64,000 nt of DNA from positions 3,744,001 to 3,808,000 of the forward strand of contig CBDCGL010000011.1 in the NCBI GenBank assembly GCA_965216755.1. The letters are read 5' to 3'. The first letter of the stretch is position 1; each line of letters starts with the position of its first letter. Of the stretch, positions 2,332-41,979 are shown one piece after another. The notes beneath the pieces are model-generated. The model saw only the letters and a list, made by a program, of their open reading frames with translations. It did not search any database and was not told the origin of the DNA. The position numbers and the translations under genes are program-made. The stretch comes from Alphaproteobacteria bacterium (lineage in GTDB: Bacteria > Pseudomonadota > Alphaproteobacteria > UBA7887).

Positions 2332-3432
2332 TTAGACGTTAAACCGAAACAGCAGAACGTCCCCGTCAGCAATCACATAATCACGGCCTTCTTGGCGCAT
2401 CTTGCCCGCATCCTTCGCGTCTTGTTCTCCTCCACAAGCAATATAGTCGTCAAAACTGATCGTTTCGGCGCAAATGAAGCCACGTTCGAAATCGCTGTGG
2501 ATGTTTCCTGCGGCTTCGGCCGCCGGCGCGCCGCGGGGCACTGTCCAAGCCCGGGATTCTTTCGGACCGGCGGTAAAGAAAGTGATCAAGTCGAGCAGGG
2601 CATAACCGGCTCTGATCAGGCGCGACAGGCCGCTCTCCTCCAATCCCAGATCATTCAAAAATCCGGTGCGCTCGGCCGCGTCGTCGAGCTGTGCGATCTC
2701 CGCTTCGATTGCCGCGGAAATCACCACAGCTTGCGCGCCCTCCGCCGCCGCCATCTCGGCAACCTTGGTGCTATGGCCGTTGCCCGTGGCGACATCGCCT
2801 TCGTCGACATTGCAAACATAGAGGACTGGTTTTGCGGTAAGCAATTGCAGGGCCTGACAACGGGTGCGATCGGCACCGTCGAAAGCCAGCTTGCGCGCCG
2901 GGATGCCGTCGCGCAGCGCGGCCAACACCTGCTCCATAACCGACAACGTTGCGCGGGTTTCCTTGTCGCCGCCACGCGCGCGTTTGGCGCTCGCTTCCAC
3001 GCGTCGCTCCATGCTGTCTAAATCGGCCAGCAGCAATTCGGTGGATACAGTCTCAGCATCGCCGATCGGGTCGACGCGGCCGCCAACATGGGCAATGTTG
3101 TTATCTTCGAAACAACGCAAAACATGGGCGATCGCATCGACGCCGCGAATTTGGCCGAGAAACTGGTTGCCCAGCCCTTCCCCTTGGCTGGCCCCACGGA
3201 CCAGCCCGGCGATATCGACGAATTCGAGATGGGTTGGGACAACGCTTGGCGAACCGGCCAGTTTGGCGACTTGGTCAAGACGGTCATCGGGCACCGCGAC
3301 CCGGCCGACATTGGGCTCGATCGTGCAGAATGGATAGTTGGCGGCTTCGGCCGCCGCCGTGCTGGTCAGTGCGTTAAACAGCGTCGATTTGCCGACATTG
3401 GGCAGGCCGACAATGCCACAGTTAAATCCCAT
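2332..3432 (-). CDS. ychF: Redox-regulated ATPase YchF
   Basis: GIVGLPNVGKST P-loop, NYPFCTIEPN, DIAGLV, C-terminal TGS domain ending LFRFNV. Confidence 0.98.
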   Translation of the reverse strand: MGFNCGIVGLPNVGKSTLFNALTSTAAAEAANYPFCTIEPNVGRVAVPDDRLDQVAKLAGSPSVVPTHLEFVDIAGLVRGASQGEGLGNQFLGQIRGVDAIAHVLRCFEDNNIAHVGGRVDPIGDAETVSTELLLADLDSMERRVEASAKRARGGDKETRATLSVMEQVLAALRDGIPARKLAFDGADRTRCQALQLLTAKPVLYVCNVDEGDVATGNGHSTKVAEMAAAEGAQAVVISAAIEAEIAQLDDAAERTGFLNDLGLEESGLSRLIRAGYALLDLITFFTAGPKESRAWTVPRGAPAAEAAGNIHSDFERGFICAETISFDDYIACGGEQDAKDAGKMRQEGRDYVIADGDVLLFRFNV

Positions 3433-38716: not shown

Positions 38717-39613
38717 CTAAAGCGGCGTATCCGCGACCTTGCGTAACAAAAAGTCGCGAAACACGCCGACACGCCGCGAGTTGCGCAACTCTTCAGGATA
38801 TACGAAATAACCTTCGACATTGGGCGTTTGCACGTCGGGCAGCACGCGGACAAATTGCGAGGATTTATCCGCCAAGTAGGCCGGCAACGTCGCAACGCCG
38901 ATGCCGGTCTGCACCGCCCGGAAAATCCCGTAAACATTGTTGACCGTCAGCGCCGGCTTAAAATCGGCGTCTTGACTGCGGAGTTTCTCGACCAGCCAGT
39001 CGACATCATCATAGGGTGACGGCGCGCCTTCACCAAAGCCGATGACACGATGATCATGGGCAAGATCGGCCAAGCTGCGTGGGGTCCCGAAGCGATTGAT
39101 GTAGGCCGGTGCGGCATAAATACCAAAATGGGCCGTGAACAGATGGCGCTGGATCAGGGTTGGTTGCCGCGGCGGCGTCAACCTGACCGCCACGTCGGCC
39201 TGGCGCATGGCCAGATCGAGTTCGACATCGAGGACCAACAGCTGTACGGAAATATCGCGATAATGGTCGATGAATTCACCGATATAGCTGGTCAGCCACA
39301 GTGAGCCGAAGCCAATTGTCGTCGATACGCGCAGCGGGCCCTTGGCTTCGGCCTTGCTTTCCTTGAGTGTTGCTTCGGTCATCGCCAATTTGGCGAATAC
39401 TTCGCGCGCGGTTGAGTACAGCGTCTCGCCTTGCTCGGTGAGAATCAAGCCGCGCGCATGGCGATGAAACAAAGGCAGGTTGAGTGAATCTTCCAGACTT
39501 CGAATCTGCCGACTGACGGCGGATTGACTAAGGTGAAGGGTGTCCGCCGCATGCGTGAAGCTACCACAATCGGCCACAACGCGAAAAACCCGTAGCTTGT
39601 CCCAATCCATCAT
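38717..39613 (-). CDS. LysR family regulator (LsrB/VtlR-like)
   Basis: MDWDKLRVF, SQSAVSRQI, LFHRHARGL; directly downstream of trxB. Confidence 0.93.
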   Translation of the reverse strand: MMDWDKLRVFRVVADCGSFTHAADTLHLSQSAVSRQIRSLEDSLNLPLFHRHARGLILTEQGETLYSTAREVFAKLAMTEATLKESKAEAKGPLRVSTTIGFGSLWLTSYIGEFIDHYRDISVQLLVLDVELDLAMRQADVAVRLTPPRQPTLIQRHLFTAHFGIYAAPAYINRFGTPRSLADLAHDHRVIGFGEGAPSPYDDVDWLVEKLRSQDADFKPALTVNNVYGIFRAVQTGIGVATLPAYLADKSSQFVRVLPDVQTPNVEGYFVYPEELRNSRRVGVFRDFLLRKVADTPL

Positions 39614-39633: not shown

Positions 39634-40635
39634 CTACGCATCAATTGGCTCGCGATCCGATTCCGGCATCGCAGCCCGCACCGTTTGCGCGTTCTCTTGG
39701 CTCGCCAAAAAGCGTTCGGCTTCAAGCGCCGCCATGCACCCGGTGCCGGCCGCGGTGACCGCCTGGCGATACGTCTTATCCTGGACATCGCCGGCTGCGA
39801 ACACGCCTGCGACGTTGGTACGCGTGCTATCCGGGGCGGTGACAACGTAGCCGTCTCGGTCGATCTCTATTTGACCACGGAACAGGGCCGTGTTCGGTGT
39901 GTGGCCAATTGCGACAAAAACACCGTCGGCAGCCTGATCCCGCGTCACGCCGGTTTTGACGTTGCGAACGCGCGCGCCGGTTACGGCCGGCGGGGTCCCG
40001 TCACCCAGGATTTCGTCAACCACCGTATCCCAAAGGATGTCGATCTTGGGATGGGCAAACAGTCGATCCTGCAGGATCTTTTCGGCACGCAATTCATCCC
40101 TGCGGTGGACCACTGTGACCCGACTGGCAAAGTTGGTCAGAAACAGCGCTTCTTCGACCGCAGTATTGCCGCCGCCGACCACGATGACAGCCTTGTCGCG
40201 GAAAAAGAAGCCATCACACGTCGCGCAAGCCGAGACGCCGAACCCTTTGAACTTCTCCTCGCTGTCCAGGCCCAGCCAACGCGCCTGAGCACCTGTACAT
40301 AAAAGCACCGTGTCGCCGGAATAGATGGCGCCGGAATCGCCAACACAGCGGAACGGCCGCGCGCTCAAGTCAACCTCGACAATCGTGTCGGCAAACATCG
40401 CCGTGCCGACCCCTTTCGCCTGGGCCTCCATTTGTTCCATCAACCAGGGGCCTTGGATCACCTCGGCAAAACCAGGATAGTTTTCGACGTCGGTCGTAAT
40501 CGTCATCTGTCCGCCCGGCTGCAGGCCGTAAACCAGGATGGGCGATAAATTCCCGCGCGCTGCATATATGGCGGCGGTGTAGCCGGCCGGGCCGGATCCC
40601 AGAATCAAGACCTTGGTGTGGTGTTGTTCAGCCAT
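39634..40635 (-). CDS. trxB: Thioredoxin reductase
   Basis: GSGPAGYTA, CATCDG, GGGNTA, HRRDE, RQAVTAAG. Confidence 0.97.
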   Translation of the reverse strand: MAEQHHTKVLILGSGPAGYTAAIYAARGNLSPILVYGLQPGGQMTITTDVENYPGFAEVIQGPWLMEQMEAQAKGVGTAMFADTIVEVDLSARPFRCVGDSGAIYSGDTVLLCTGAQARWLGLDSEEKFKGFGVSACATCDGFFFRDKAVIVVGGGNTAVEEALFLTNFASRVTVVHRRDELRAEKILQDRLFAHPKIDILWDTVVDEILGDGTPPAVTGARVRNVKTGVTRDQAADGVFVAIGHTPNTALFRGQIEIDRDGYVVTAPDSTRTNVAGVFAAGDVQDKTYRQAVTAAGTGCMAALEAERFLASQENAQTVRAAMPESDREPIDA

Positions 40636-40854
40636 TTCGCCGTTCTCGTTCTCCCTTGCGCGCGGCATTGCGGCATTGCGGCATGCGGCGCGCCAACCGA
40701 TCACCGGACCTGCCCGGTTTCGGGCCGCCGATCAAAGATGGCGGTGCCGAAGAATCTGTCAACCGCTTGATGTCAAAGCCGACCTTGGCACTATGGTGGC
40801 GGTGCCGCAGCCTCTGCCTCAGTCAAAATTCTACCCTTTTTCCGATGTTTTGTG

Positions 40855-40883
40855 TTGCGAATGGTTCTCATTCGCGATAAATC
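40855..40883 (+). promoter_or_regulatory. Fur-type box overlapping a sigma-70-like promoter
   Basis: TGCGAATGGTTCTCATTCGC contains the perfect inverted repeat GCGAATG-N5-CATTCGC and a 7-1-7 TGCGAAT-G-GTTCTCA. -35 TTGCGA (40855-60), 17-nt spacer, -10 (GA)TAAATC (40878-83). Confidence 0.65.
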
Positions 40884-40889
40884 ATAACT

Positions 40890-40985
40890 GACGACTTCGA
40901 CGCGGCCGCAAATGGGCTTTGTCGAAGGAGCCTCTCCTTCGACTGGGTGGGTCGGTTCTGTCACGGGGGCCGGCCCCATTTTTTT
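40890..40985 (+). ncRNA. Putative iron (Fur)-regulated small RNA
   Basis: Promoter and Fur box upstream, structured body with a CCUCUCCUU anti-SD motif, plus-strand intrinsic terminator. Both neighbouring genes are on the minus strand. Confidence 0.65.
40949..40985 (+). terminator. Rho-independent terminator (plus strand)
   Basis: GGGTCGGTTC (40949-58) pairs with GGGCCGGCCC (40967-76) using G-U pairs, followed by T7 (40979-85). Confidence 0.75.
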
Positions 40986-41979
40986 ATCGCGCGGTCTCGT
41001 TCCAATTGCCCTGCGACAAGATCGCCTGAGCCACGGTGCCGGCGTCGTCGAGTGGGCGTTGATCGGTGGCGCGACGACGGTCGAGGCGGGCGGTCAAGTT
41101 GAACGGCTGCGCGAAGCCGGATTGATATAGGATTTGGTGGAAGCGTCTGTGGCGATGGCCGGTCGCGCCTGGTGGCGCAAAAATGAAGACCGGTTTGCCG
41201 GTTGCGCAAGCCTCGGCGCACATGGACATGGAATCGCCAGTCACGACGATCGCGTCGGCATGACCGAGCATGCCGAGATAGGGATTAGCGGCCGGTGGCG
41301 GCCGCCACCCGTATTTCTCCGCCGAGTCGGGCAATGCCGCGAACAGCGCGACTGTAGCGGTCGCAGACGTGCGGCGGCTGGTTGTGGCCATGATATGGGC
41401 GCCGAGGCGTTGCGCGAATGCCGTCACCTGGTGCCCCAAATCCGTTGCGTGTTTCGACGTGAAGCGATGACGGCCCGCGTCGCCGCCGACAATCAGGGCC
41501 AGACGCGGGCCTGGACCGGGCGCGAAAGACGTCTGCCATTCTTGCTTGGCGGCGGCCAGCGTGGCGATCGTGACGCCGTGCGGCGCGCCGACCGTTTCGA
41601 TGAGCCCGGCACGTTTTGACACGCGGTCGTGGACGGGTACCGCGATCAGGTCGAGTCCAGTCGTCGGGCGGCCTGGCCACATCAGCTGCACGGTCATGGT
41701 GGCATTTCGGCTTTGACTTTTGATATGGCGATTGACCGGTACTGTTCGCCGACCGGCCCCGATCACGATATCGGGCCAAGGTGGCGCAATACGGGCGGCA
41801 CTGGATGCGGTCAGATGGCCCAGGCGCGCACCCAACAGCAGATTGGGCAATCCGGCCGCGCGATTGTAACGAAGCGTCTTGATGGTGTAGGGCAGGGCCA
41901 GTGCGTCGGCCACGGCCAAGCACTGGCTGACATTTCCGGCACGGTCGTCAACGAGGGCCCAAATAATCGGCAACGTCAT
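40984..41979 (-). CDS. Mitochondrial fission ELM1 family protein
   Basis: DDRAGNVSQC, PWPDIVIGAGRR, TTSRRT, NPYLG, VTGDSMSM. Confidence 0.9.
   Translation of the reverse strand: MTLPIIWALVDDRAGNVSQCLAVADALALPYTIKTLRYNRAAGLPNLLLGARLGHLTASSAARIAPPWPDIVIGAGRRTVPVNRHIKSQSRNATMTVQLMWPGRPTTGLDLIAVPVHDRVSKRAGLIETVGAPHGVTIATLAAAKQEWQTSFAPGPGPRLALIVGGDAGRHRFTSKHATDLGHQVTAFAQRLGAHIMATTSRRTSATATVALFAALPDSAEKYGWRPPPAANPYLGMLGHADAIVVTGDSMSMCAEACATGKPVFIFAPPGATGHRHRRFHQILYQSGFAQPFNLTARLDRRRATDQRPLDDAGTVAQAILSQGNWNETAR

Follow-up and report, generated by a model that had tools for sequence, protein, structure and literature searches.

A predicted Fur-repressed small RNA gene in the ELM1-trxB gap of an alphaproteobacterial genome

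A candidate small RNA (sRNA) gene was analysed in a 64,000-nt stretch (the window) of contig C11 in the genome of an alphaproteobacterium (Alphaproteobacteria bacterium, assembly GCA_965216755.1; 5.0 Mb, 59% G+C). All elements of the candidate unit lie in the 348-nt gap between trxB, the gene for thioredoxin reductase, and a gene of the ELM1 family. The best explanation, to which we give an even chance of being correct, is a lineage-specific noncoding RNA (ncRNA) gene of about 97 nt on the plus strand that is repressed by Fe2+-Fur. Judging from the sequence, a small plus-strand RNA is likely made from the unit; its specific targets and a switch between two folds are held with less confidence than the Fur-controlled small RNA gene itself. 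A sequence-only reading of the same DNA had proposed an analogue of RyhB here. The parts of that proposal concerning a Fur box on the promoter, the lack of an open reading frame (ORF), the terminator and the competing folds held up, and no support was found for conservation or target enrichment. The elements, numbered by their position in the window, are as follows.

40854-40875, no strand: Fur-alpha box; the 19-mer at 40854-72 fits the Caulobacter 9-1-9 motif and is overlapped by a perfect palindrome at 40857-75
40855-40860, plus strand: -35-like hexamer TTGCGA, read from the sequence; the same hexamer and spacing occur in four copies of a unit in another genus (g66, described below)
40876-40883, plus strand: -10-like region, TAAATC (17-nt spacer) or GATAAA (16-nt spacer)
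40889-40985, plus strand: predicted ncRNA of about 97 nt, its 5' end inferred from the -10 region and its 3' end in the U-tract
40895-40927, plus strand: 5' stem-loop of the open fold (CUUCGACG...UGUCGAAG), the first to form in stepwise folding
40921-40943, plus strand: 10-bp hairpin of the closed fold (pair probabilities about 0.7; z-score -3.85), which buries most of the CU-rich motif
40931-40949, plus strand: CU-rich candidate seed CCUCUCCUUCGACUGGGUG, containing the anti-Shine-Dalgarno motif CCUCUCCUU at 40931-39
40949-40985, plus strand: intrinsic terminator with an 11-bp stem at 40949-76, four G-U pairs, a 6-nt loop and U7 (T7 at 40979-85)

The hairpin that had been read as needing plus-strand G-U pairs and ending in T7 was confirmed about 97 nt downstream of the box and its -35 hexamer. 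On the plus strand the terminator folded with -19.5 kcal/mol (z -2.96), and only one of 200 shuffled sequences was as good; the corresponding values for the minus strand were -8.7 kcal/mol, z +0.22 and 104 of 200. The U-run after the hairpin was present on the plus strand only, and the arrangement on the transcribed strand, a GC-rich hairpin followed directly by a U-run, is that of a Rho-independent terminator. Because the terminator folds only on the plus strand, it cannot be the terminator of ELM1, despite its overlap with the ELM1 stop codon. When T6 runs after a hairpin were counted on contig C11, 242 sites were found, 80 of them between predicted genes. Forty-three of the 80 followed a same-strand gene within 150 nt, 16 lay further away, and 21 were orphans, preceded by a gene of the opposite strand, the candidate among them. 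The genome's copy of MmgR/SuhB (RF00519, 60 bits) fell in the same-strand class beyond 150 nt and a 37.8-bit relative fell among the orphans, showing that both classes contain real sRNA genes in this genome. Genes were predicted with a home-made caller (4353 genes), whose starts are approximate: those of trxB and bfr came out too far upstream, and sdhC was missed.

The Fur-like palindrome was verified as a perfect 7-nt inverted repeat, GCGAATG at 40857-63 and CATTCGC at 40869-75, with five nucleotides between the arms; its 7-1-7 reading was located at 40856-70. When the perfect palindrome is viewed on the other strand with a 4-nt shift, its hexamers are arranged as in the classical 19-bp Fur box. 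The 19-mer GTTGCGAATGGTTCTCATT (40854-72) has a single mismatch to TTGCGAA-N3-TTCTCAA, agreeing at 16 of 17 positions and missing one of the 14 specified bases. Validated Caulobacter Fur sites, as tabulated in PMC2724300 (Table 3), follow a palindromic 9-1-9 pattern of 19 bp that takes the form ATTGCGAAC-G-TTTCTCAAT. The box in the window fits the ATTGCGAA-N3-TTCTCAAT-type motif drawn from footprinted or shifted sites in that source and resembles validated sites, for example the ones at nuo and sdh (PMC2724300). At the sequence level, the palindrome is well supported as a genuine alphaproteobacterial Fur-type box. Across the genome, the window site scored best with a matrix built from six sites, a ranking that is partly circular because the matrix includes the window site. 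The degenerate consensus with up to two mismatches matched 52 sites, 19 of which lay in the intergenic 14% of the genome, showing enrichment between genes; only five had one mismatch or none, and the window site is one of these. Iron-related genes next to box matches were:

a polyferredoxin and Fe2+-transport (PF10634) operon
an FbpA-like binding protein
two loci of 2Fe-2S/molybdopterin enzymes
a di-haem oxidoreductase
a radical-SAM gene
the gene for 5-aminolevulinate (ALA) synthase

Other matches adjoined genes unrelated to iron, including sugar transferases, and the only perfect match lies between a GmrSD gene and a beta-helix gene, so that the regulon suggested by the neighbours is not a clean one. 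Near-identical Fur-type boxes were also found upstream of a Cys-rich gene of about 400 codons in three genomes of the family (G014, G005 and G011; L002, L006 and L008); the C-terminus of its product is presumably DUF2325-like. Scans for the palindrome with three mismatches and for AATG-N5-CATT were discarded as too noisy (the crude ORF mask of the latter covered 94% of the genome). At two intergenic long-gap box matches, C11:429608 and 4708030, no second copy of the RNA was seen.

Genes for Fur (on L055), Irr and a Zur-like protein are present in the genome; the Irr has a His-rich stretch, a feature typical of Irr. An Irr-type palindrome, resembling the iron control element (ICE), TTTAGAAC-T-ATTCTAAA, was found at C11:3165604-3165620 between irr and a rubrerythrin gene, upstream of the latter. 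Since this distinct Irr-type box occurs elsewhere in the genome, the Fur and Irr motifs are separable here. Readings of the window palindrome as an Irr (ICE), RirA, Zur or LysR-type site were dropped by eye, the genome's own ICE-like box being different. A DUF3501 gene with complementarity to the candidate seed lies about 2 kb from the Irr-type palindrome.

The promoter-like arrangement TTGCGA-N17-TAAATC was found as described earlier, with TTGCGA at 40855-60 and TAAATC at 40878-83. The Fur box covers the -35 element and the spacer, so the unit has, at the sequence level, a predicted Fur site overlapping the promoter of an RNA gene. A box over the -35 element and spacer goes with Fur-repressed promoters in Caulobacter (PMC2724300), for which the same source gives the sigma-70 consensus TTGAC-16-G/C-CTANA. 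The alternative TTGCG-16-GATAAA appears closer to this consensus than to that of E. coli.

No credible ORF was found in the unit, in agreement with the earlier reading: the plus-strand ORFs of the gap appear random, being either Cys/Arg-rich runs or antisense extensions into ELM1, and a small-protein reading was dropped on these grounds. The sequence AAGGAG at 40925-30 has no start codon within usable distance. In the predicted RNA, two mutually exclusive pairings of 40921-27 were recovered. One is a perfect 10-bp hairpin of GTCGAAGGAG (40921-30) with CTCCTTCGAC (40934-43) around the loop CCT; the other uses CTTCGAC at 40895-901 as an upstream partner and gives 7 bp. The two folds of the 97-nt RNA were nearly isoenergetic, with ensemble energies of -43.34 kcal/mol (closed) and -42.82 kcal/mol (open) and pair probabilities of about 0.70 and 0.30. 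When the nascent RNA was folded only to 40927 or 40933, the open 5' stem-loop was the minimum free energy structure until the 3' arm of the hairpin emerged. In the open fold, 40928-48 was largely free between the 5' stem-loop and the terminator. The proposal that the seed is exposed in one fold and mostly buried in the other was thereby borne out in the thermodynamic model, and the bistable fold is real as a thermodynamic prediction. A 5' stem-loop, a free stretch and a terminator with a U-tail make up the usual layout of Hfq-dependent base-pairing sRNAs.

A Fur box with T6 at 80-110 nt proved to be a rare combination, which counts in favour of the unit: six of 301 alphaproteobacterial genomes had it, compared with two matches of the reversed control in the same 301. 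The six comprised the window's genome, three AT-rich or leader contexts and two g66 genomes; no other genome among the 23 of the family had it. A second unit of this design was thus found in another alphaproteobacterial genus (g66). A unit of about 91 nt under a Fur-alpha box was present in four copies in all three g66 genomes examined, two of the copies lying about 0.9 kb apart on one strand of a single genome. The copies are:

L201:1528-1654, minus strand
L202:1507-1633, minus strand
L194:1501-1629, minus strand
L203:1505-1632, minus strand

The box, the 17-nt spacer, the nnnATC -10 region and about 58 nt of the RNA body were nearly invariant across the four copies, and the stems of the terminators were paired in each copy although their sequences differ. 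The flanks of the copies are unrelated; in genome G080, the unit lies between a DUF179/AlgH-like and a DUF1989 gene. As in the window, a Fur-alpha box overlies TTGCGA, followed by the 17-nt spacer and nnnATC, and the ATCA that ends the g66 -10 region is at the same distance from TTGCGA. The g66 RNA resembles the window RNA as well, with a 5' stem-loop, a C-rich single strand, a terminator with U7 and a position between unrelated genes. However, the g66 unit is conserved in three genomes, whereas the window unit stands alone. A model built from the four g66 copies reached 10.9 bits when run on the window, with the register shifted, and had no match in the host genome (G000), and the model of the window unit did not find the g66 unit, indicating from sequence comparison that the two units are not homologous. 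When the g66 model was run on 151 genomes of the class outside g66 at E<=0.01, a single borderline match was obtained (G164, 25 bits, E 0.0095). Against RF00519 (gathering score 41) the g66 unit reached 27 bits. It probably represents a genuine Fur-repressed sRNA not described before. The features of the g66 copies are those to be expected of a genuine sRNA gene under Fur control, and they lend independent support to the window unit.

When the window was compared with Rfam, the only match at gathering score was a tRNA, as had been expected of a new family. At E<=10, the region 40600-41100 gave only HTT-AS1_3 (13.2 bits) and suhB (12.6 bits), the latter being the only sRNA family in this weak list; RyhB (RF00057), PrrF, NrrF, FsrA and the other Rfam sRNA families did not reach gathering score on the unit. 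Like RyhB of Enterobacteria and PrrF1/PrrF2 of Pseudomonas, the unit has a Fur box on its promoter, a predicted RNA in the range of about 90-110 nt, an intrinsic terminator and a U-tail; hfq is present in the host genome, and bacterioferritin is a predicted target. It differs from them in its alphaproteobacterial-type box, its single copy, the lack of any sequence or structure match in Rfam, and a CU-rich anti-Shine-Dalgarno seed that the 10-bp hairpin could mask. No described family includes the unit, and it is plausibly a new sequence family of the RyhB/PrrF class, to which an iron-sparing role has been assigned (PMC11005374, PMC3751524).

The unit also resembles MmgR/SuhB (alpha-r8, RF00519) in its stem-loop, CU-rich anti-Shine-Dalgarno stretch and terminator. 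An identification with the MmgR/SuhB of this genome was rejected: the model gave 12.6 bits on the unit (gathering score 41; E 7.5 in 501 nt), the true copy lies at C11:3906425-3906495 (plus strand), and the candidate was not among the 12 matches with E<=1. Two weaker look-alikes of RF00519 were seen at 4240839-4240915 and 1800287-1800366 (both minus strand; 37.8 and 26.8 bits), and these and the true copy each carry a CCUCCC-type motif just before an orphan terminator. In Sphingopyxis, the activator of SuhB is described as a regulator of the LysR type and not Fur (bioRxiv 10.64898/2025.12.09.693200). RusT of Caulobacter crescentus is, as predicted for the window unit, an alphaproteobacterial, Hfq-bound sRNA induced by iron starvation (PMC11005374). 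The description of its control sets it apart: RusT is controlled by NtrYX, and its authors report no Fur consensus in its promoter (PMC11005374). The iron-sparing response of gamma- and betaproteobacteria and of Firmicutes is directed by Fur-repressed sRNAs, as described for RyhB, PrrF, NrrF and FsrA (PMC11005374, PMC3751524) and for IsrR, and an unidentified iron-responsive sRNA has been postulated for Caulobacter (PMC3751524). No Fur-repressed sRNA of Alphaproteobacteria was found in the literature, subscription journals lying outside the search.

In the proposed mechanism, Fur would occlude the promoter when iron is present, and the RNA would be made when iron is absent. The 5' stem-loop would form first and leave the CU-rich stretch at 40931-49 single-stranded beside the terminator and U-tail. 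This stretch would pair with the ribosome-binding regions of mRNAs, the best leads being those for bacterioferritin and a soluble di-iron monooxygenase, and the pairing would lower translation, a response to iron limitation like those of RyhB and PrrF. The seed could be masked by the 10-bp hairpin of the other fold, and trxB, on the divergent side, may be a further target of the box.

Several results weigh against a Fur-repressed sRNA gene. At the scale of the window, the consensus with up to two mismatches gave one match where 0.34 were expected, and at least one match occurred in 27 of 100 shuffled sequences; the box alone is not significant at this scale. A sigma-70 scan called no promoter-like site on either strand, so that, measured against the E. 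coli consensus, the promoter is a weak one. In the favoured fold of the model the seed is mostly paired. A DNA search of 60 relatives revealed no homologue, and a single-sequence covariance model found nothing convincing in 22 genomes of the family (best E 0.05) and no homologue at 80 alphaproteobacterial trxB loci. A metagenome scan with the ELM1 protein reached only two distant loci, without a homologue. No second copy was found in the unit's own genome, where only chance 15-18-mers matched and no repeat or mobile-element copy was seen. Conservation of box, seed and terminator was not seen in the ELM1-trxB spacer, where they were missing from all six family genomes that retain the synteny, and these six gaps measured about 50-220 nt, compared with 352 nt in the window by the same tblastn measure. 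Conservation of the spacer is a weak test since the syntenic genomes belong to other genera, with ELM1 about 50% identical (35-52% for the best matching segment across 22 family genomes).

Target prediction yielded no statistical signal and two leads. At least nine contiguous bases complementary to 40926-50 were present near the start of 19 of the 4353 genes, compared with 14 for the reversed control, and the enrichment of iron-protein mRNAs for which the sequence-only reading had proposed a test was not seen. Among the ten longest matches are the alpha subunit of the di-iron monooxygenase, a radical-SAM protein, DUF3501 and a NarJ-like chaperone, which were labelled as iron-related only in retrospect. 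The gene for the soluble di-iron monooxygenase alpha subunit, at C11:251802-253319, offered 11 contiguous pairs on its Shine-Dalgarno sequence, at -14 to -4, and bfr, at C11:1231561-1232064, formed a duplex of 11+5 pairs between 40933-49 and mRNA positions -30 to -15. Plain duplex energies were dominated by GC-rich, loop-rich duplexes and by an ORF repeated in eight copies, and were used only for the following ranks among 4348 genes.

di-iron monooxygenase: 44
nuoA: 46, a loop-rich duplex that was not trusted
bfr: 71
aconitase-family gene: 437
sdhD: 928
acnA: 1986
hemA: 4309
2Fe-2S genes with a Fur box: about 2900-3300

Most of the iron genes chosen in advance ranked low, among them sdhD, acnA, hemA and the 2Fe-2S genes, which counts against the proposal. 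Accessibility-weighted scores covered only 1592 genes, favoured the edge of the scored segment and were not used. The C-terminal domain of Fe/Mn superoxide dismutase (PF02777, Sod_Fe_C) had no match in the genome, which is rated 99.8% complete. Bacterioferritin and the di-iron monooxygenase are single leads, which count in favour of the unit. The repeated ORF is 354 nt long, has an identical upstream region in its eight copies on C11 (e.g., 172046-172399) and is probably part of an insertion sequence.

Both neighbours of the unit are on the minus strand, as the earlier reading had it. The genes around the gap are:

38717-39613, minus strand: LysR-type gene, near the candidate unit
39634-40635, minus strand: trxB (thioredoxin reductase), divergent from the box, with its ATG about 220 nt from the box
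40984-41979, minus strand: ELM1-family gene, its stop codon overlapping the last two T of the U-tract
minus strand: greA, also near the candidate unit

Relatives of TrxB at 65-78% identity were mostly labelled Rhodospirillales, Rhodospirillaceae or Alphaproteobacteria. In the trxB leader, GCGGCATT is repeated about 2.5 times at 40658-40694, and the same segment holds an 11-nt inverted repeat, GCGCGCGGCAT/ATGCGGCGCGC.

The target of the box may be trxB, the divergent gene, either together with the RNA promoter or in its place. If the box served trxB only, as an activating or repressing site about 220 nt before the ATG, the promoter hexamers would be incidental, the terminator stray or related to ELM1, and there would be no sRNA; we regard this as unlikely. 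The second-best box of the genome, at C11:1030014-1030049 (L060:2515-2550), bears on this directly and counts against an sRNA gene: it lies 109 nt upstream of the start of hemA, the minus-strand ALA synthase gene, showing that a protein gene read in the divergent direction can be served by such sites. Similarity to the window site extends over about 30 nt, T-rich flank included, and the orientation towards the minus-strand gene is the same; neither a plus-strand -10 element nor a terminator was found with it. This box points to haem synthesis being controlled by Fur, or to a regulatory module that was duplicated. In Caulobacter, iron-using operons are reported to be activated from Fur sites at -87 to -204 (PMC2724300), and the list of genes induced there when iron is limiting and in a fur mutant includes a thioredoxin-like one (PMC3751524). 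A -10-like hexamer, TAGAAT, seen by eye on the minus strand at 40833-28, would put the box near -44, and the sigma-70 scan called no plus-strand promoter. However, it called none on the minus strand either, and the terminator does not fold on that strand, which is the strand of ELM1. No Fur box was present in the gap upstream of trxB at any of the 80 alphaproteobacterial loci, where the only match, with two mismatches, was at -571, indicating that the box is not a conserved feature of trxB. The same box and promoter geometry is found on the conserved small unit of g66. Because of the plus-strand-only terminator, the trxB loci and the g66 precedent, control of trxB in place of the RNA is less favoured than the Fur-repressed sRNA gene.

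The unit might also have no function, the extra 250-300 nt or so of spacer being a decayed remnant or an insertion whose parts coincide by chance. Its single copy in a single genome, the lack of conservation and the short spacers of the relatives are consistent with this. The joint occurrence of box and T6 is rare, as the two control matches in 301 genomes show, the terminator and the 10-bp hairpin are each more stable than shuffled sequences, and the direct and inverted arrangement of CTTCGAC/GTCGAAG in two copies also argues against chance. With no repeat or mobile-element copy in the genome, we consider this explanation improbable.

We place slightly less weight on a real small plus-strand RNA without control by Fur or iron, in which the palindrome binds another regulator or is promoter only and the product is a CU-rich anti-Shine-Dalgarno riboregulator like the MmgR type. 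CCUCCC-type motifs do precede several orphan terminators of the genome, the box by itself did not reach significance in the window, and several consensus matches, the perfect GmrSD/beta-helix one included, lie beside genes unrelated to iron. The agreement at 16 of 17 Fur-alpha positions together with the perfect 7-5-7 palindrome, the iron-related neighbours of other box matches and the different Irr-type motif speak for Fur. Action in cis, with iron-dependent transcription converging on the 3' end of ELM1 and altering ELM1 (and trxB by read-through) through interference or pairing in the 3' untranslated region, would suit the overlap of the U-tract with the ELM1 stop codon and a possible co-transcription of ELM1 and trxB in relatives with short spacers, but is very improbable given that the strong terminator should end the RNA at the ELM1 stop codon with a coding overlap of only 2 nt.

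The Fur-repressed sRNA gene is at present a prediction from one genome. A wider claim is tentative, and we think it more doubtful than the gene itself: that Alphaproteobacteria have directly Fur-repressed, genus-specific and short-lived riboregulators built on one promoter design, with at least two unrelated examples, and that the seed of the window RNA toggles between an open and a closed state. If it is true, such riboregulators would be the missing negative arm of alphaproteobacterial Fur regulons, the double copy in g66 (about 0.9 kb apart) would loosely resemble PrrF1/PrrF2, and the activity of the window RNA would depend on co-transcriptional folding, Hfq or temperature, beyond abundance alone. 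A validated example would fill the alphaproteobacterial gap among Fur-repressed sRNAs, with the g66 unit as a second and better-supported case, and together the two units would show the repeated origin of such regulators from one promoter design.

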